The notes beneath the pieces are model-generated. The model had not been told where the DNA came from, did not search any database, and worked only from the letters and a program-made list of their open reading frames with translations. Shown here piece after piece: positions 3,513-30,285 of a DNA stretch of 50,505 nt. The translations under genes and the position numbers were made by a program. Every line of letters starts with the position of its first letter. The first letter of the stretch is position 1. Origin of the DNA: a virus (taxonomy: Duplodnaviria; Caudoviricetes); IMG/VR virus record IMGVR_UViG_3300049165_000088, positions 1 to 50,505 of that record. One strand, 5' to 3'.

Positions 3513-4030
3513 GACGGGGTCCTAGACGAGTGCGAGGGCGAGTGCGCACCCGGCGATGAACCCGAGTGCGACGGCGGGTGCAAGGCGGGCGGGTTCGGGT
3601 GCGAGGCGGGTGAGTCCGGCGTACGAGCCGAGCATCGACAGGCAGGCGAGGACGGTGAACGCGGCGTGCATCACGGCTTCGTCCGTCCGTAGACGATGGC
3701 GATCACGTCTTGTGCCTTCGGCTGACCGATGCGCAGCTCGCGCTTTGCCCGCTTGAGCGTGAGCCGGCCGGTCTTGGCGAGTTCGCGTCCGCGGCGTACG
3801 AGTTCGTCGAACTCGGGTGCGGGTGCGGGTTCGTCAGGTGCGGGGCCCGGGTTCGACTCAGGTTCGGGTCCGGGTTCAGCGCACTCGGGTTCCGGGTCCG
3901 GGATGCGGGCGTGGACCTCGACCCGGGCCCGTGACGCGGCGAGTGCGCCCACGGGTGCGGTGAGTTCAGGGATCGGCGGGTGCATGGGTGCGAGGTCGAG
4001 CACGAACTCGGCGGGTGCGGTAGCGGGTGC
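3236..4030 (+). repeat. Dense oriented GGGTGC/GGGTTC short repeats spanning three genes
   Basis: Many CGGGTGC and CGGGTTC copies at about 3236-3412, 3575-3612 and 3812-4030, nearly all on one strand. Confidence 0.7.
3522..3671 (-). CDS. Small two-helix membrane peptide (49 aa)
   Basis: MHAAFTVLACLSMLGSYAGLTRLAPEPARLAPAVALGFIAGCALALV; start overlaps upstream stop. Confidence 0.6.
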   Translation of the reverse strand: MHAAFTVLACLSMLGSYAGLTRLAPEPARLAPAVALGFIAGCALALALV

Positions 4031-6544: not shown

Positions 6545-7507
6545 CTATGCTGCGGCTCGCTCCTTCGCCGCCTTCCGCTGCTGCCGCCGGGCTTCGGCTC
6601 GCTTCGCCCTTTGCTCCGCCTCGGCCCGCTTCCGCTCGGCCGCGTCGAGCGCCTTCTGCAGCGCGGCGAGCTGCTCGGGCGTCGACCACACGCGCCCCCG
6701 CCGGTCCACGTCGAACGGAACCGGGGCGTTGCAGTCGATGAGCCCGGTCGAGCAGGTCACGCTCATGACTGTCCCGGCCTCGGTGTGCAGCACGAGCTCG
6801 CCGCCGCACCACGGGCACGGCCGGCCGGGCATGACCGCCGCCGTGCGGCCGGTGCCGAGGACCCGGTCGAGCCTGGCCGCGGCCTCGCGGGCGTAGGCGG
6901 CGATCCGGGCCTGCTCCCGGTCGTGCGTCGCACAGCACGGCCCGCCGAGCCTGCCGAGCAGGTACCGGACCGCGGTCGGCACGGTGCGCATGGTCCGTTC
7001 CCGGTCGTGCCAATCCTCCGGGTACACGCGGCGCGTCAGATCCTCGGTGTGCCAATCCGACGGGGCGACTGCATCCCGGGCGCTGATCGAGTCGGCGAGC
7101 CCGCAGAGCGCGAGCTCGATCGCGCGGCAGGCGTCGGCGACGTGCAGCCGGATCGGCACGGGCCGTTCGCCGAGCTGCGCCGGGTCGCGGTCCTCACGCA
7201 CCGGGTGCGGGAGCCCTTCGCCAACGTGGTCGCAGAACGCGCACTTGTAGTAGAGCTGCCCGGTGTGGTGCCGGGTGGTGATGAGCCGCTGCGGGTGGGC
7301 GACGGCGTGCGCGATCGCTTCGGCGAGTGACTGTGCGGCGGACACTTCGGCGGCGTCCTGCTCGTCGAGGGCACGCAGGTACTCGGCGCCCGGCTTCTGC
7401 GGCGGCCACGTCTGGCCGGGGCCGGTGGTGTCGAGCAGGGCGCGCAGGTGGTCCCAGTGGTCGAGGATGTGCTGCAGGTTCTCGGCGGGCGTGCGGGTGT
7501 GGTTCAT
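6545..7507 (-). CDS. Zn-finger phage protein, possible late transcription regulator (320 aa)
   Basis: CAFC and PCPWCGG motifs; last gene of the early operon; AGGAG RBS. Confidence 0.65.
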   Translation of the reverse strand: MNHTRTPAENLQHILDHWDHLRALLDTTGPGQTWPPQKPGAEYLRALDEQDAAEVSAAQSLAEAIAHAVAHPQRLITTRHHTGQLYYKCAFCDHVGEGLPHPVREDRDPAQLGERPVPIRLHVADACRAIELALCGLADSISARDAVAPSDWHTEDLTRRVYPEDWHDRERTMRTVPTAVRYLLGRLGGPCCATHDREQARIAAYAREAAARLDRVLGTGRTAAVMPGRPCPWCGGELVLHTEAGTVMSVTCSTGLIDCNAPVPFDVDRRGRVWSTPEQLAALQKALDAAERKRAEAEQRAKRAEARRQQRKAAKERAAA

Positions 7508-7596
7508 GGCGGGTGTACTCCTGTGGCGCGTAGGGTGATCACACCGCGTGGGGCGCCCCGGACATCTGGCCGGATGAGGGGCGCCCCGTCGTCGTG

Positions 7597-7815
7597 CTAC
7601 GGGCGGTTCTGGGGACGTGAGCCGGTCTCGCGGATGGCTGCGGCCACTTCGAGCAGCGCGTGCACGATGCCGATGCCTGCGAGGGCGGCCGCCTTCGCGC
7701 TATGTGCAAGCATCACGTCGGTGCCGACTCGGCCTGTCGGGATTCTGCTCAGCTCGTCGACAGCGTCGCGGGCACGCTTATCAGCGACCTCGCGGTCGAA
7801 CCTTGCGTCGGTCAT
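7597..7815 (-). CDS. Hypothetical protein (72 aa)
   Basis: AAAGGA RBS; ATGA overlap. Confidence 0.65.
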   Translation of the reverse strand: MTDARFDREVADKRARDAVDELSRIPTGRVGTDVMLAHSAKAAALAGIGIVHALLEVAAAIRETGSRPQNRP

Positions 7816-25379: not shown

Positions 25380-25570
25380 GCGAAGTGCTCCGCCCCGATC
25401 GTGCCGAGCAGCGCGTACAGGACCGGCACGCCGCGCTGCTCGGCGCAGGTGCGGTGGGCGAGCACGGAGCACCCGGGGCCGCTGGAGGACGGGTTCACTC
25501 GTACGCACACGTCGGCGCCCGGTTCCGGGCAGTAGGTGCAGTCCCTGCGTGGTGGTGTCTCGCTCGTCAT
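25376..25570 (-). CDS. Small Zn-finger protein, CxxC...SGPG...AHxxC (64 aa)
   Basis: GGGAGAG RBS; CTYC...SSGPGCSVLAHRTC. Confidence 0.65.
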   Translation of the reverse strand: MTSETPPRRDCTYCPEPGADVCVRVNPSSSGPGCSVLAHRTCAEQRGVPVLYALLGTIGAEHFA

Positions 25571-25670
25571 GGTGTCTCTCCCGACCCGACTCGGTGATGA
25601 GCCACCATCGTGTGTGCGGACAGTCGCCATGCGTATACAGGCCTTGGGCGGGCGAGCGTATATTTCCGCC

Positions 25671-26711
25671 ATGAGTAGTCGGGGACTCTGGACGGACGTC
25701 AGGCTGCGGGCAGCCTGGGCACGCGGGGACTGGTCATCCGTCCTTCGCGAGTACAGGCGCGCCGCGGGGATCACGCAGGTCGCGCTCGAATCGCTGATCG
25801 GCATACCGCAGCCCCATATCTCCGCCATCGAGTCGGGCCGTAGGCAGGTGAAGACTGCTGACGTCCGGGCTCGCATCACTGAGGGGCTGCAGGTGCCAGC
25901 AGAAGTCATCGAGGCCGGACAGAGCGAGACCTACGCCGAGTGGCAGCCGCCCGTCGAACTGCGCGAGCGGATCGCCCACGGCCACACGACGGGCAGGACC
26001 GACCTACGAACCGCCGAATGGATCGGCGAAGTCCTCGCCACGCAGCGGCGAGCCGAAGACGAGATCGGCGGCCGCGAGCTCTGGCCGGTCGTCCGCTCGC
26101 AGCTCGACGCCGTCACCCGACTCATTCCCGGCACGTCCGGGCCGGCCGCCGACGAGCTCATGCTGCTCGCCGCCGAACACGCCCACTGGCTGTCATGGGT
26201 CGCGTTCCAGCACGACCGGGTTGGCCCGGCGCTGGCGTGGCTGGACATCGCGCACGGGTGGGCAGTCGACGGTGCGCACGCTGACATGTCGTCATGGGTG
26301 CGCAGGGTGCGCGCTTTCTACCTGCACCGGTCCGGTGACCCGGTGCGGGCGTTGCGGACCGCGGACGCTGCACGGATGGTGTCAGGCCTGTCGCCCGCAG
26401 CGGCGGCGGTCGCCGCGCATGAAGCGTCGATAGCGGCCGCGGCGGTCGGAGAGCGGGACCGGGCGCGCAGGCTGTCGGACTCGGCGGTGCATCACGCGGC
26501 GCAGGTCCCCGACGAGGGGGACCGGCCGGGCTGGCTGTACTGGCTCACGCCGGCCAGGGCGCAGCTGCAGGCGGCTGATGCTGCGTATGCCTGTCGGCGG
26601 TGGGCGGATGCCGCCGAGGGGATCAGCGAGGCGCTGCCCGCTCTGTCGGGGTACCCGCGGGATCGGGCGCACTATCAGGCCCGGCTTGAGGACGCGCTGC
26701 GCCGGGTCTAG
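25671..26711 (+). CDS. XRE HTH plus TPR-like regulator (346 aa)
   Basis: LREYRRAAGITQVALESLIGIPQPHISAIESGRR; Ala-rich helical C-terminus; TATATT 6 nt before ATG. Confidence 0.85.
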   Translation: MSSRGLWTDVRLRAAWARGDWSSVLREYRRAAGITQVALESLIGIPQPHISAIESGRRQVKTADVRARITEGLQVPAEVIEAGQSETYAEWQPPVELRERIAHGHTTGRTDLRTAEWIGEVLATQRRAEDEIGGRELWPVVRSQLDAVTRLIPGTSGPAADELMLLAAEHAHWLSWVAFQHDRVGPALAWLDIAHGWAVDGAHADMSSWVRRVRAFYLHRSGDPVRALRTADAARMVSGLSPAAAAVAAHEASIAAAAVGERDRARRLSDSAVHHAAQVPDEGDRPGWLYWLTPARAQLQAADAAYACRRWADAAEGISEALPALSGYPRDRAHYQARLEDALRRV

Positions 26712-27055: not shown

Positions 27056-27092
27056 TTGCCATAACGACTCACGTGCGTCATTATGGAGTCGT
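27056..27092 (+). promoter_or_regulatory. Promoter overlapped by a 28-bp palindromic operator
   Basis: TTGCCA(27056)-17-CATTAT(27079); CCATAACGACTCAC|GTGCGTCATTATGG 27059-27086. Confidence 0.7.
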
Positions 27093-27117
27093 ATCCGAGG
27101 GGGAAGGACCCGACGAC

Positions 27118-27639
27118 ATGACCGACCAGACGACGTACACCACCTGGTACCGCGCCACACAGGACAGCAACGGCCCCGACGAAACGGTCGAAAAGTTCAT
27201 GACCGACTGGGTCGACGACCACGACATCGACGGCATCAAGGCCGCTTACCGCGCAGCGATCGACCAGGCCCTGCCCGCCGACGTCGCCCTCATCGGCAAC
27301 GAATTCATCGGCCCCGCCCGCCCTGAGCCCGGCGAGTTCGACGGCTACCCGGTCGACGAGCACGGCGACCTCGACATCGCCGCCATCATCGAGGACATCG
27401 ACCTCGACGAGATCGTCCCCCGGTTCGAGCTGCTGACCATCGACGAGGTTGCCTCGCGGTTCGGCTACACAGGGAAGGCCGCGGCCGCCACCGCCCGCAA
27501 GGCTCTGTCCCGGCTAGGTGTCGAGCGTGCCGGCCTAACCGACGAGCCTCGACCCCGCGCCCTCTTCCGTGCCGGTGACGTGGACGATGCGGTGTCCGCC
27601 CGGCCCGGCAAGGGCAATCGGACTCCGCGCGACGCCTAA
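27118..27639 (+). CDS. Acidic N-terminal domain fused to C-terminal AlpA/Xis-like HTH (173 aa); candidate Acr-Aca fusion
   Basis: GGAAGGA RBS; D/E-rich first ~105 aa; LLTIDEVASRFGY...ARKALSR...RALFRAGDV...RPGKGNRT. Confidence 0.75.
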   Translation: MTDQTTYTTWYRATQDSNGPDETVEKFMTDWVDDHDIDGIKAAYRAAIDQALPADVALIGNEFIGPARPEPGEFDGYPVDEHGDLDIAAIIEDIDLDEIVPRFELLTIDEVASRFGYTGKAAAATARKALSRLGVERAGLTDEPRPRALFRAGDVDDAVSARPGKGNRTPRDA

Positions 27640-27649
27640 GGCGTGAAGG

Positions 27650-27683
27650 AGAAGGACCCCCACCCGAAGGTGGGGGTCCTTCT
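27650..27683. terminator. Bidirectional terminator, 15-bp perfect stem
   Basis: AGAAGGACCCCCACC-CGAA-GGTGGGGGTCCTTCT; cUUCGg loop on - strand. Confidence 0.85.
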
Positions 27684-27824
27684 TCATCCCCGCATGTGCG
27701 GGGAGCAGTGGCACGCGCCCCTGAGACTCGGGCCATCCCCGCGGTGGCGGGGAGCATGTTGCTTCGGTCCCCACAGGGACCATCCCCGCATCTGCGGGGA
27801 AACCCCCGCTCTCGCGGGGACGAA
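27680..27824 (-). CRISPR. Orphan mini-array of four type I-E-like repeats with 18- and 20-nt spacers
   Basis: - strand repeats TTCGTCCCCGCGAGAGCGGGGG (truncated), GGTTTCCCCGCAGATGCGGGGATGGTCCC (27776-27804), ATGCTCCCCGCCACCGCGGGGATGGCCCG (27729-27757), CTGCTCCCCGCACATGCGGGGATGAAGAA (27680-27708); no cas genes in window. Confidence 0.85.
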
Positions 27825-27828
27825 CACG

Positions 27829-27837
27829 ACTATGGCA
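27829..27837 (-). promoter_or_regulatory. Extended -10 element for the mini-array transcript
   Basis: TGcCATAGT a few nt upstream of the first repeat; no clear -35. Confidence 0.5.
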
Positions 27838-27874
27838 CAACCCGCCGACAGTCGGGGGCCGGAACGCAGAAATC

Positions 27875-27904
27875 GCCCCCTCCCGCCCGTAGGCGAGAGG
27901 GGGC
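27875..27904 (-). terminator. Terminator of the late/lysis operon
   Basis: 13-bp stem with cUACGg loop and one G-U pair on - strand, followed by GATTTC. Confidence 0.75.
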
Positions 27905-27912
27905 ATCTGTGT

Positions 27913-28629
27913 TCACGGGTACTGGCGCCGCTGCGGGTCCAGCGCGAGAGGCAGCGGGTTGCCGGGCTTGTCGTCGTCGGGAGGCTGCGGGGCACCGTCG
28001 CGGCGGCAGATCTTCGCGTCTGGGTCATAGCTCGGGGTCTGCCACGAGTAGCCCTCGGGGCAGGACTGACCGGCCGGACCGGGCGGGCCCTGCTCGCCCT
28101 GCTCACCGCGGGGCCCTTGCTCTCCGCGCTCGCCCTGCGGCCCAGGCGGTCCCTGTGTGCCAGCGGGACCGGGCGGGCCTTGCTGCCCGTCGGCGCCCGG
28201 CTCACCATCCGCGCCGTCCGTACCGTCCGTGCCGGGCTCACCCGGTGCGCCACTCGCCCCCGGCCTGCCCGGCTTGCCTTGCTCACCGGCCGGGCCAGGC
28301 GGACCGGGTATCGGCACCGGCACCTCGGCACGCTGCGGCAGATCATCCACCGCCCGCTCCGGATCCGGCACCGCCGGCGTATCCCCCCGCGCCTCGATCT
28401 GCGCCCGCAACACCCGCACGTCCCCGGCGAGCGTCGACACGGCGTCGCCGCGGCGGTTCGCCTCGGTGATCGCCTCCTCCGCCTCGCTGATCGCCTGCTC
28501 GCGTGCCTGCCTCTCGGCGTCGACCTTCTGCCAGACGAGCACAACCGCGCTCGACAGGATGAACAGCGCCGCGACCACTGCGAGGCGTTGCCACTGCCGG
28601 GCGATGATCCCGGGGCGTCGGTGCGTCAC
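27913..28629 (-). CDS. Membrane-anchored collagen-like protein
   Basis: N-terminal TM, coiled coil, long Gly-X-Y run, C-terminal Cys pair. Confidence 0.85.
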
Positions 28630-28958
28630 TGGGTGTCCCCTCCCAGGGCGGCCAACTGCTCGCGCAGCTGCTGATTCTCGTTGGTCAGGGTGGCGATCTG
28701 CGCCTGCAGTCCGGCCTTGTCGGCGCGCTCGCGGGCGAGTTCGGCGTACGCGGCGGCGAGCAGCGTTTCGTTCTCCCGCAGCTTGTCCTCGACGCGCCCG
28801 ACCTCTTTGCGCAGGTTGTCGACGAGCCCGCCGTACCCGGTCATCACGACGCCCGTGTGATTGGCGCGGGCGCTACTGCGCTGCCCGTGCCAGGAAGCAA
28901 GGCCGGTGATGACACCGACGACCAGGGTGACGAGCGCGCCGCTGACCACAGCGTCCAC
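28626..28958 (-). CDS. TM plus coiled-coil lysis-cassette protein (110 aa)
   Basis: GGAAAGG RBS; hydrophobic N-terminus; heptad C-terminus. Confidence 0.75.
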
Positions 28959-29026
28959 GGGCCGGGCCTTTCCGTAGTGCGGCCGTGTGCGCGGGTGGCG
29001 CGGCCCCTTCCGGGGCCGCGCTCCTT

Positions 29027-29335
29027 TCACACGCCGTCGTGCTGCCCGCGGTACGAAGCGACCGGAGAGATCGCCTCCTGCTTCGGGTACTCGGGCGGAC
29101 GCGCCCACCCGAGCAGCAGACCGGCGAGCTTCTGCATCACGTCACCGCGGGCACGCTGCCCGAGCAGTTCGAGGACCCGGAACACCAGGTAGTAGGCGAG
29201 GGCGAGAACCACGGTCACGGCCCCGATGACGGCGGTCGAGTCGAACTCGATGCCGGCGCGGGCGGCGAGCATGAGCAGCCATCCGGCGACCACTGGGACG
29301 GCGGTGCGCATGAACGATACGAACAGAGCAGGCAT
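29027..29335 (-). CDS. Putative holin
   Basis: AAAGGAG RBS; MRTAVPVVAGWLL, two TM helices, LLLG...PPEY; follows the endolysin. Confidence 0.75.
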   Translation of the reverse strand: MPALFVSFMRTAVPVVAGWLLMLAARAGIEFDSTAVIGAVTVVLALAYYLVFRVLELLGQRARGDVMQKLAGLLLGWARPPEYPKQEAISPVASYRGQHDGV

Positions 29336-29361: not shown

Positions 29362-30285
29362 TCAGGCGACGACGGTGAACCCGTGCCGCGCTCCGAGCTT
29401 CTTCAGCGACGTTGCGCCGGGGATGCCGTCGGCGTCGGAGCCGCGGTAGCCGAGGCGCTGCTGCCACAGCGAGTAGGCGCTGCGGGTCGCGGTGCCCATG
29501 TGTCCGTCGGCGTACTGCCGGGCGAGCAGGCCCTCGGCGACGAGCGCGTCCTCGACGTACTCGGCGGCCGGGTAGCTGACGGGCGTGCCGCGCTTCGGCG
29601 GGTCGCTCTTCGCTGCGGCGACGAGCTTCGACAGGTCGACGACCCGCTTCGGTGTCGTCTTGCCGGGCAGCTTGAGGGTCTGCCCCGCCCGGATCTTGTT
29701 CGGGTCCTTGATCGAGTTGAGTGACACGAGCGCGCTGACGCTCGTGCGGTGCGCGGCGGCGATCGCCGACAGAGTGTCGTCCGCCTTGACCTTGTACGAG
29801 CCGGACGCGCTACCGGACACCGGCGCGGTCGGGGTCTCGTACTTGGGCCGGCCGTACCCGGCGATCTCCGCCTCGCGGCGTACCCGGCGGGCGCACACGT
29901 TCGCCGTGTTGCCCTCGATCGTGAACACGTCACCGCCGTCGACGCCGGTGACGATGCCGACGTGATCGATACGGGCGATGTCGTTCGTGCCTGCCCAGTC
30001 GACGAACACGATGTCACCGCGCCGGATCCCGCGGGCGCCGGCGTGCCACTGGCCGGCGGTCTTGAAGCGCTGCGCGTGCCACACGGTGTACGCGTAGTCC
30101 GTGCCGAACAGCACGGCGTCGCGCTCCCCGGCCTGCGTCGCCCAGTACGTGATCGCGGCGTTGCACCACGGGAAGTTGTACCGGAACGCGGCTCCGTTGC
30201 GCTCGGCGTACCAGGTCTGGATGTGGTTCGGCTCGCGCATGCCGAGCGACTTCTCAGCCTGCTTGATCATCCCTTCGAGGCTCAT
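29362..30285 (-). CDS. Endolysin: CHAP + LysM + peptidoglycan-binding domain
   Basis: PWCNA...DHVGIV...TIEGNT; YKVKADDTLSAIA...LNSIKDPNKIRAGQTLKLP; ADGHMG...WQQRLGY...ADGIPG. Confidence 0.92.
   Translation of the reverse strand: MSLEGMIKQAEKSLGMREPNHIQTWYAERNGAAFRYNFPWCNAAITYWATQAGERDAVLFGTDYAYTVWHAQRFKTAGQWHAGARGIRRGDIVFVDWAGTNDIARIDHVGIVTGVDGGDVFTIEGNTANVCARRVRREAEIAGYGRPKYETPTAPVSGSASGSYKVKADDTLSAIAAAHRTSVSALVSLNSIKDPNKIRAGQTLKLPGKTTPKRVVDLSKLVAAAKSDPPKRGTPVSYPAAEYVEDALVAEGLLARQYADGHMGTATRSAYSLWQQRLGYRGSDADGIPGATSLKKLGARHGFTVVA

Follow-up and report, generated by a model that had tools for sequence, protein, structure and literature searches.

What use could a phage that encodes neither Cas6e nor Cas7e have for an array of type I-E CRISPR repeats whose spacers are only 18 and 20 nt long? 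The locus that raises this question lies in the phage genome IMGVR_UViG_3300049165_000088, all 50,505 nt of which were analysed and are called the window below. We find that it is probably a self-contained small-RNA gene that provides two regulatory guides resembling CRISPR RNAs (crRNAs), in other words a viral 'Cracr array': both spacers are homologous to those of short crRNA-like units in Streptomyces cas loci, both match the same host sites as these units, behind a protospacer adjacent motif (PAM), and arrays of this kind recur in other phages, with conserved synteny in some of them.

The preprint by Liu et al. (bioRxiv 10.1101/2024.10.29.618823, version of July 2026) describes Cracrs, crRNA-like RNAs of viruses that are copies of the host's regulatory crRNA-like RNAs (crlRNAs) and through which the Cas effectors come to repress their own promoters or those of a toxin. 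Of the host crlRNAs described there, CreR represses the cas promoters and CreA represses a CRISPR-guarding toxin. The preprint lists 219 Cracr candidates, 30 of them arrays, the I-E arrays among which comprise 16 with two spacers and 4 with three, and it reports that a I-E array of a Salmonella prophage, with 24- and 21-nt spacers, lowered casA transcription and restored plating of T7, and that a I-F Cracr suppresses CreTA. Its criterion is a spacer that matches the host CreA or CreR over at least 9 PAM-proximal positions; position on a virus outside a CRISPR-cas locus, flanking repeat-like sequences of the host subtype and partial PAM-flanked complementarity to a cas or creT promoter region were considered alongside it.

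Results

The array and its repeats

The locus contains four CCCCGC-N4-GCGGGG stem-loops on the - strand (Table 1). The pattern TCCCCGCNNNNGCGGGG, with at most one mismatch, has eight matches in the window, namely the four array sites on both strands, and none in the rest of the 50505 bases; by chance 1.01 matches would be expected, and eight were not reached in any of 100 shuffles. Read in the frame of the 29-nt I-E repeat (5 nt, a 6-bp stem, a 4-nt loop, a 6-bp stem and an 8-nt handle), the four units span 27680-27824 with start-to-start periods of 20, 47 and 49 nt. The first two hairpins stand 20 nt apart with no spacer between them, and the loops differ in all four units (GAGA, AGAT, CACC and ACAT). 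Four hairpins of the type TCCCCGC-N4-GCGGGG(A/G) with spacers of 18 and 20 nt were what an earlier note on this DNA had described, and the coordinates read from the sequence bear this out exactly. Its further observation that cas genes are missing agrees with profile searches for Cas6e (PF08798) and Cas7e (PF09344), neither of which is present in this genome of 97% estimated completeness (CheckV). When up to three mismatches were allowed, no further match to either spacer turned up in the window, as the note had judged by eye.

Among 401 sampled Streptomyces genomes, 161 have a Cas3 HD domain. Of the 30 best loci, most possess, upstream of cas3, an array in which CTGCTCCCCGC-N4-GCGGGGATGGTCCC repeats alternate with 32-nt spacers, and the repeats within these host arrays are identical or nearly identical, unlike those of the window. 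At one host locus (L053), the genes next to the array encode Cas3 (Cas3_HD), Cse1 (Cas8e) and Cse2, as assigned by Pfam. Stem, 5' TGCT and ATGG-CC handle are common to the window units and the host repeats, and the handle of U2 is identical to that of the host. By these features the window repeats are Streptomyces type I-E repeats, and repeat-like sequences of the host subtype flank both spacers. At two other cas3-upstream loci (L139 and L141, in genomes G007 and G293) we noticed two solitary repeat-like hairpins about 155 nt apart, oriented opposite to the nearby array and upstream of very long (~1570-aa) cas3 frames, which may be another host regulatory unit.

The locus shares its 29-nt repeat architecture with canonical I-E arrays and differs from them in nearly every other respect: its periods and spacer lengths (18 and 20 as against 32 nt) are short, its repeats are unlike each other down to their loops, leader and cas genes are lacking, and its spacers are common to several phages rather than unique. 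One might then ask whether the hairpins have anything to do with CRISPR, and are not instead a cluster of GC-rich terminators or hairpins like repetitive extragenic palindromes that has accumulated in a gap between convergent genes. The gap does hold two more terminator-like hairpins, and Rfam gave no match in the whole window at gathering thresholds; when 27600-27950 was scanned permissively, 26 sub-threshold matches appeared, most of them over the terminator hairpin, and CRISPR-DR10 reached E 2.7-6.4 only. Such an origin is nevertheless hardly credible, for the likeness to Streptomyces I-E repeats does not stop at the stems but includes the 5' TGCT, which is strand-specific, as well as the 3' handle of 8 nt, and entire units align collinearly with units of cas loci.

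The 18-nt spacer and host units upstream of cas8e

Some 1.1 kb upstream of cas8e in Streptomyces sp. NBC_01590 (G004), a degenerate repeat with the handle ATGGCCCT is followed by an 18-nt spacer and a second degenerate repeat, and this spacer belongs to the same family as the 18-nt spacer of the window. Solitary units with degenerate repeats and an 18-nt spacer of this family were found in four genomes (G004, G372, G088 and G118), all 1.0-1.1 kb upstream of the Cse1 match and on the same strand, and the window unit is collinear with the four of them (alignment A2). The first 9 nt of the window spacer are identical to those of the G088 unit, a borderline case with respect to the threshold of at least 9 PAM-proximal positions.

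Every sixth spacer position is flipped out in I-E systems, where a mismatch is tolerated, and our pairing score ignores these positions. Apart from the unit itself, the host spacer has only one other good match in three of the four loci, a site that follows AAG or AAC and agrees at 13 of the 15 pairing positions. From the Cse1 match this site is 102-115 nt (G088 and G372) or about 100 nt (G004) upstream; its equivalent in G118 has a different seed. On the three host sites the window spacer pairs at 11, 13 and 12 of 15 positions, and 0 of 2000 shuffles reach 13, the score at its best site (G372, AAC PAM). A comparison of the spacers with Streptomyces cas promoters, with an AAG-type PAM in mind, had been suggested by the earlier note, and it is here that matches emerged, upstream of cas8e and behind AAG or AAC. 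The G004 locus (L143 10231-11262) has between its unit and cas8e a divergent gene for a 305-aa protein with the Cas3 HD domain only; the target of the unit falls between the start of this gene and cas8e and could control both. L167, L176 and L177 are likewise loci with a solitary crRNA-like unit some 1 kb upstream of cas8e.

The 20-nt spacer and a small-ORF module

The host counterparts of the 20-nt spacer lie in a second I-E locus layout. In S. olivochromogenes A53 (G001, L053 6490-6900) the array upstream of cas3 begins with a unit whose 20-nt spacer is of the CAGGGGCG type, and between this unit and cas3 lies an open reading frame (ORF) of 72 aa; its translation, read by eye, is strongly hydrophobic along an N-terminal stretch and contains another hydrophobic segment. 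An AAC followed by a protospacer covers the Shine-Dalgarno sequence and start of this ORF, and positions 1-14 match the spacer of the unit except at 6 and 12, which are flipped positions in I-E. Searching the 401 genomes with the ORF at E <=0.01 gave matches in 34, strong ones only in five with G001 included. The homologs in the other four (G227, G130, G387 and G034, the last with one in-frame TGA) have 60-66% identity, and there, as in G001, the order is AAC PAM and target, ORF, and then the short-spacer unit some 100 nt further on; in these four the module is antisense in the cas3-cas8e gap. The spacer of the unit is 20 nt long in four of the five genomes, that of G387 being longer, and the window unit is collinear with all five (alignment A3). 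The modules themselves were located in L053, L185, L186, L187 and L188.

The score matrix speaks for specificity, each host unit pairing with its own target across 11-13 contiguous positions of the seed. The 20-nt spacer of the window matches the G130 target, behind an AAC PAM, over 11, which none of 2000 shuffles reached, their maximum being 9; among viral relatives the spacer of L007 matches G227 and G034 over 12 and that of L010 matches G001 over 12. Compared with the spacer of the G130 unit, 12 of the first 13 nt are identical, the exception being flipped position 6, against the threshold of at least 9 PAM-proximal positions in Liu et al. The small ORF has no Pfam family, and its best Atlas score, 0.85, is below the meaningful level. 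In its arrangement the host module, a crRNA-like unit with an ORF of about 70 aa, resembles a safeguard of the CreTA type, the candidate toxin being a small membrane protein.

Both window spacers, then, have partial PAM-flanked complementarity to a cas or small-ORF region, in representative genomes rather than in an identified host of this phage. These matches bear directly on whether the array could be a pure decoy, in which Cas6e and Cas7 are drawn off by the repeat hairpins into dead-end complexes while the spacers serve no guiding purpose. Racrs, phage-encoded solitary repeat units that act as RNA anti-CRISPRs, are established as described by Camara-Wilpert et al. (Nature 2023, PMC10651486), and Cracrs too are said by Liu et al. 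to compete for Cas proteins; the repeat hairpins of the window are multiple and intact, U1 and U2 stand back to back without a spacer, and undersized complexes are what short spacers would be expected to give. A decoy needs no particular spacers, yet both of these belong to families conserved across independent viral loci, are homologous to units of host cas loci, have the lengths of their host counterparts (18 and 20 nt) and match the same PAM-flanked host sites far above shuffles. Nor does the array have the form of a Racr, a solitary repeat with no functional guide. We regard pure sequestration as unlikely, though sequestration may act alongside guidance.

Recurrence in other phages

A scan of IMG/VR with the repeat pattern returned 25 loci: 14 have at least one repeat pair 43-53 nt apart instead of 61, six are ordinary 61-nt arrays, and the remainder are single or widely spaced repeats. 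The 18-nt spacer recurs with two changes in L023 and L026. The family of the 20-nt spacer, in which the first five positions vary and the CAGGGGCG core is conserved, is found at about a dozen loci, a pattern that may be accounted for by pairing of the core with the ribosome-binding region while the first five positions track the host variant. Being shared across loci, these spacers are unlike those acquired by adaptation. A scan of contigs for the handle followed by the CAGGGGCG core gave 82 stretches, most of which either match by chance, the genomes being GC-rich, or are ordinary spacers of arrays with a 61-nt period (L061, L077 and L108); the real short units among them are in L039, L049, L053 and L074, and those in L100 and L093 are doubtful. 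Other viral mini-arrays (L004, with five repeats on the - strand, L008, L014, L017 and L022) carry 20-21-nt spacers of further families.

The loci L012, L023 and L026 are syntenic relatives in which an array follows the tail-fibre gene each time, with differing sets of units. A prophage of Streptomyces sp. NBC_01511 (L049), 1.7 Mb from the cas locus of its host, likewise has the endolysin, the hol-like protein, the collagen-like fibre and an array, the last at 7466-7760 with three variants of one 31-32-nt spacer family and one CAGGGGCG-type 20-nt spacer. One of its spacers agrees with the unit in the cas3-cas8e gap of its own host, which is antisense to the cas genes, at 18 of the first 19 positions, with the sole difference at position 12, one of those flipped out in I-E; this resident phage therefore copies a guide from the cas locus of its own host. 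When named phages were searched by BLAST, the wider region gave collagen-repeat matches only, and the array by itself led to the Eklok group, which is unrelated to the window phage and whose isolates have six I-E-like repeats in an unannotated gap (Table 1). The spacers of the Eklok array measure 32, 31, 29, 20 and 22 nt, and one contains the CAGGGGCG core. The genome of VWB has no such repeats.

This distribution sheds light on two further explanations. One is that the phage picked up host CRISPR DNA that is now a decaying, non-functional remnant, as might be suspected from the non-identical repeats, the degenerate last handle and the lack of both cas genes and a leader. Random decay from a full-length array, named beforehand as an outcome that would speak against a functional element, is not what the relatives show: L012, L023, L026 and the prophage L049 retain the array in the same place, with intact stems and its own promoter-like element and terminator, the stems are invariant as against the variable loops, and in no relative are 32-nt spacers seen to shrink randomly. 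Moreover, the array combines units whose host counterparts occupy two kinds of I-E locus, and the unrelated phages of the Eklok group have such arrays as well. Taken together, these observations make a remnant very improbable.

The other explanation is that the guides turn the Cascade and Cas3 of the host on competing phages, a form of superinfection exclusion; the earlier note had named rival phages as possible targets of non-cutting repression. Virus-targeting mini-arrays of viruses are known, according to the preprint by Shmakov et al. (bioRxiv 10.1101/2023.03.03.530964). The spacers of the window, at 18-20 nt, are however well under the 32 nt of host arrays, and the same ones recur in different phages instead of being unique. 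Beyond the absence of a second copy in the window, the exact spacer patterns in IMG/VR matched only the array copies of L023 and L026 and, for the two spacers, 10 and 7 loci in unrelated contigs with GC of 0.29-0.66 and no array context; AAC preceded the match only in the near-identical contigs L215 and L217, at about chance level. We see only the slenderest chance for this reading, and the suggestion of guidance against rival phages is not supported. The other suggestion of the note, guided repression of, for example, cas promoters, draws support from the homology of the spacers to units of cas loci and from the matching sites, to the extent that such matches predict function.

Transcription signals

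Upstream of the first repeat lies an element of the form CTGTCRG-N8-GTGCCATAGT, and of the 19 arrays compared, 7 have it in this position, namely those of the window, L010, L012, L014, L017, L023 and L026. The extended -10 of the earlier note is part of it and is in this sense conserved; a promoter scan for sigma-70 did not support it. As for the terminator that the note had placed further upstream, the hairpin is there as inverted repeat I16 and is kept, together with its T-rich tail, in L023 and L026, and the terminator scan missed it. The downstream terminator with its TTCG loop was found both by the repeat tool and by the terminator scan, which scored it at 27671-27656, and a GC-rich hairpin with a T-rich tail closes most of the 19 arrays. 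We take this hairpin as the putative terminator of the array transcript and, read the opposite way, of the convergent + strand gene. As RNA the array region has z = -6.24 relative to shuffles, and the hairpins are visible in the fold. With its upstream element, its terminator hairpin and this fold, the array looks like a transcription unit of its own.

Genomic surroundings

The window is a complete phage genome in one contig, with a G+C content of about 70%. Head, tail and lysis genes have 77-80% DNA identity to the Streptomyces phages VWB, SF1 and SF3, and the phage is a temperate-type, VWB-like Streptomyces siphovirus. Its late genes are on the - strand and end with the endolysin, the hol-like protein and the collagen-like tail fibre. 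The array occupies the 273-bp gap between the tail-fibre gene and a convergent ORF; it is thus encoded on a virus and outside any CRISPR-cas locus. The convergent ORF, for which a Pfam search gave no family, is context only. None of the known anti-CRISPR or Aca families is represented among the genes neighbouring the array.

Table 1. Features of the array and its surroundings; coordinates refer to the window unless a locus or accession is given.
Feature	Coordinates	Strand	Remarks
Endolysin	29362-30285	-	Late operon
Hol-like protein	28626-29108	-	Late operon
Collagen-like tail fibre	27913..28629	-	Final late-operon gene; PHROG phrog_1806 'collagen like minor tail', E 4.7e-32
Inverted repeat I16	27875..27904	-	Probable terminator insulating the array from the late operon; 13-nt arms, 92% complementary, 4-nt loop
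Promoter-like element	27829..27851	-	CTGTCGG-N8-GTGCCATAGT; TG-extended -10-like CATAGT at 27834-27829
U1	27796..27824	-	Repeat-like, spacerless, 3' side runs into U2; stem-loop 27819-27804
U2	27776..27804	-	29-nt repeat; stem-loop 27799-27784; 3' handle ATGGTCCC identical to the handle of cas3-adjacent Streptomyces I-E repeats
18-nt spacer ('type B')	27758..27775	-	Mimics host crRNA-like unit upstream of cas8e; alignment A2
U3	27729..27757	-	29-nt repeat; stem-loop 27752-27737; handle ATGGCCCG
20-nt spacer ('type A')	27709..27728	-	Mimics host unit after small hydrophobic ORF beside cas3; alignment A3
U4	27680..27708	-	Terminal repeat; intact stem-loop 27703-27688; degenerate 3' handle ATGAAGAA overlapping the terminator stem
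TTCG-loop hairpin (- strand) and T-rich tail, inverted repeat I2	27645..27688	.	Arms 27645-27664 and 27669-27688, 20 nt, 90% complementary
Convergent ORF	27073..27639	+	188 aa; ends right before the shared terminator; weak match to a PHROG of unknown function
Eklok array	L027 2882-3180 = NC_073484.1 34398-34692		Also in AxeJC, Ignacio, Vondra and others

Some further observations concern the phage at large. Two genes from the array, at 25536-26711 on the + strand, is a gene for a 391-aa protein with an XRE-type helix-turn-helix domain, which could be a phage repressor or a regulator of adjacent genes. At 3767-3859, unrelated to the array, ARAGORN finds a tRNA-Arg gene (anticodon ACG) that at 93 nt is unusually long. 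VWB integrates at a tRNA-Arg gene, and the one seen here may overlap the attachment site. Three soil-metagenome DNA runs contain the stretch wholly or in part, one of which is maybe its source.

Discussion

All the rival explanations considered above fit the data less well than a Cracr array. For the transcription of such an array, the processing of its RNA, the size of the complexes formed and the repression they exert, we infer the following course from sequence features. A transcript of about 175-180 nt, in agreement with the estimate of the earlier note, would start near the first hairpin, a few bases past the -10-like hexamer, and end at the TTCG-loop terminator. Host Cas6e would cut it at the base of each repeat hairpin and release a 47-nt RNA, made up of an 8-nt handle, the 18-nt spacer and a 21-nt hairpin, and a 49-nt RNA of the same layout with the 20-nt spacer, and both would load into shortened Cascade complexes. 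Because each RNA pairs with only part of its target, we propose that Cascade would bind without cleavage by Cas3. The 18-nt guide, a copy of that of a host unit in the cas3-cas8e region, would place Cascade some 100 nt upstream of cas8e and so reduce expression of cas genes, as CreR does, and the 20-nt guide would keep the ORF of about 70 aa silent through its Shine-Dalgarno and start region, this ORF being a candidate CRISPR-guarding toxin comparable to CreT. Both RNAs would additionally compete with genuine crRNAs for Cas proteins.

The likeness to the arrays of Liu et al. is considerable: these too are phage-borne, lie outside the cas locus, consist of I-E repeat-like units with several short spacers (21-24 as against 18-20 nt here), copy CreR or CreA guides of the host and match the cas promoter region partially and behind a PAM. 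The idea that the element is essentially unprecedented must therefore be given up, since the class has already been described as viral crlRNA or 'Cracr' arrays. There are also differences, in that the window array belongs to a Streptomyces phage and is known from its sequence alone, copies one cas8e-directed and one small-ORF-directed unit from two locus layouts, and has an extra spacerless leading hairpin as well as a promoter-like element that is conserved and dedicated to it. In L011, as in the window, two hairpins without a spacer between them, 19-20 nt from start to start, stand at one end of the array, and such a pair could be a Racr-like decoy or an element of processing or stability. 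Racrs, as far as described, resemble the window array in being phage-encoded mimics of CRISPR repeats, made as small RNAs (as we suppose for the window) and diverting Cas proteins; they are solitary repeats with no functional guide, whereas the window has four repeats and two conserved, target-matching spacers, and only U1 is Racr-like.

On the host side, Shmakov et al. predict mini-arrays in hosts and prophages and report that long cas3-cas8 gaps are in excess among I-E loci. In the available descriptions these mini-arrays, like host CreR of types I-E and V-A, consist of a degenerate repeat, a short spacer and a repeat between cas3 and cas8e, with a PAM-flanked site just upstream of cas8e and every sixth position free. 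They are chromosomal and auto-regulatory, whereas the element of the window sits on a virus, with no cas genes beside it; as for the host units of Streptomyces, these are only predicted. With CreTA the small-ORF module shares a crRNA-like guide, adjacent to the effector genes, that pairs with the 5' region of a small neighbouring gene, which a viral copy would silence. CreT toxins are mostly small RNAs, and the Streptomyces ORF of about 70 aa differs in being a candidate toxin with no family assignment; the main text of the CreTA preprint mentions neither I-E nor Streptomyces.

Several points weigh against the interpretation as a Cracr array. Concerning the targets, no perfect match for either spacer exists among the genomes searched, and neither the 30 best cas3-upstream loci, which represent one cas3 subfamily and mostly lack the units, nor four other loci contain a convincing site for either window spacer. 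At the best site of the 18-nt spacer (G372), positions 10 and 15 are mismatched and the seed run covers no more than 8 pairing positions; for the 20-nt spacer, pairing does not go beyond position 13. The PAM at the host sites is mostly AAC, and AAG is the one experimentally shown in S. avermitilis (PMC4762764). Concerning the host units, the pattern of handle and 18-nt spacer was matched in 71 of the 401 genomes, no more than with a reversed-pattern control, and raw genus-wide counts are meaningless because the control is equally frequent; a filter for flanking hairpins, applied to 38 loci, left three real units (G372, G088 and G118) and one chance pass (L168). The small ORF has no known family, and the function of the host units in Streptomyces is predicted only. 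The genomes compared are representative ones, none being a known host of this phage, and the Cas3 HD domain is present in only 161 of the 401 Streptomyces genomes. The sigma-70 scan returned 0 sites, with the GTGCCATAGT stretch at 27838-27829 included in the search, which is not decisive for Streptomyces, and the spacerless U1 is not accounted for. Lastly, Streptomyces goes unnamed in the main texts of the Cracr, crlRNA and CreTA preprints, and a literature search for Streptomyces with these terms found no relevant paper.

Two aspects might be new: the joining of a cas-directed and a small-ORF-directed guide in one phage transcript, and a host module of crRNA-like unit and small hydrophobic ORF in Streptomyces I-E loci. 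A bolder version, which we put forward tentatively and consider somewhat less than even in its chances, is that one transcript carries guides that silence both cas and the safeguard, that the host side is a new CreTA-like family with a two-helix membrane toxin of about 70 aa in the cas3-cas8e gap, and that the arrays, with up to six units and a dedicated conserved promoter, are a widespread modular anti-defence cassette exchanged by actinophages where the tail and lysis module ends.

If the interpretation as a Cracr array is true, RNA-guided viral hijacking of CRISPR self-regulation extends to Streptomyces and its phages, a genus in which I-E systems are common and in which phage contamination and genome engineering are of practical concern. 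It would also supply host circuits that can be tested, one with a cas8e-directed crRNA-like unit and one with a unit paired with a small ORF, maybe a protein-toxin safeguard. The natural guides of 18-20 nt could be compact designs for Cascade-based repression in actinomycetes, and the seeds of the spacers may help to predict the I-E variant, and hence the host, to which a Streptomyces phage is adapted.

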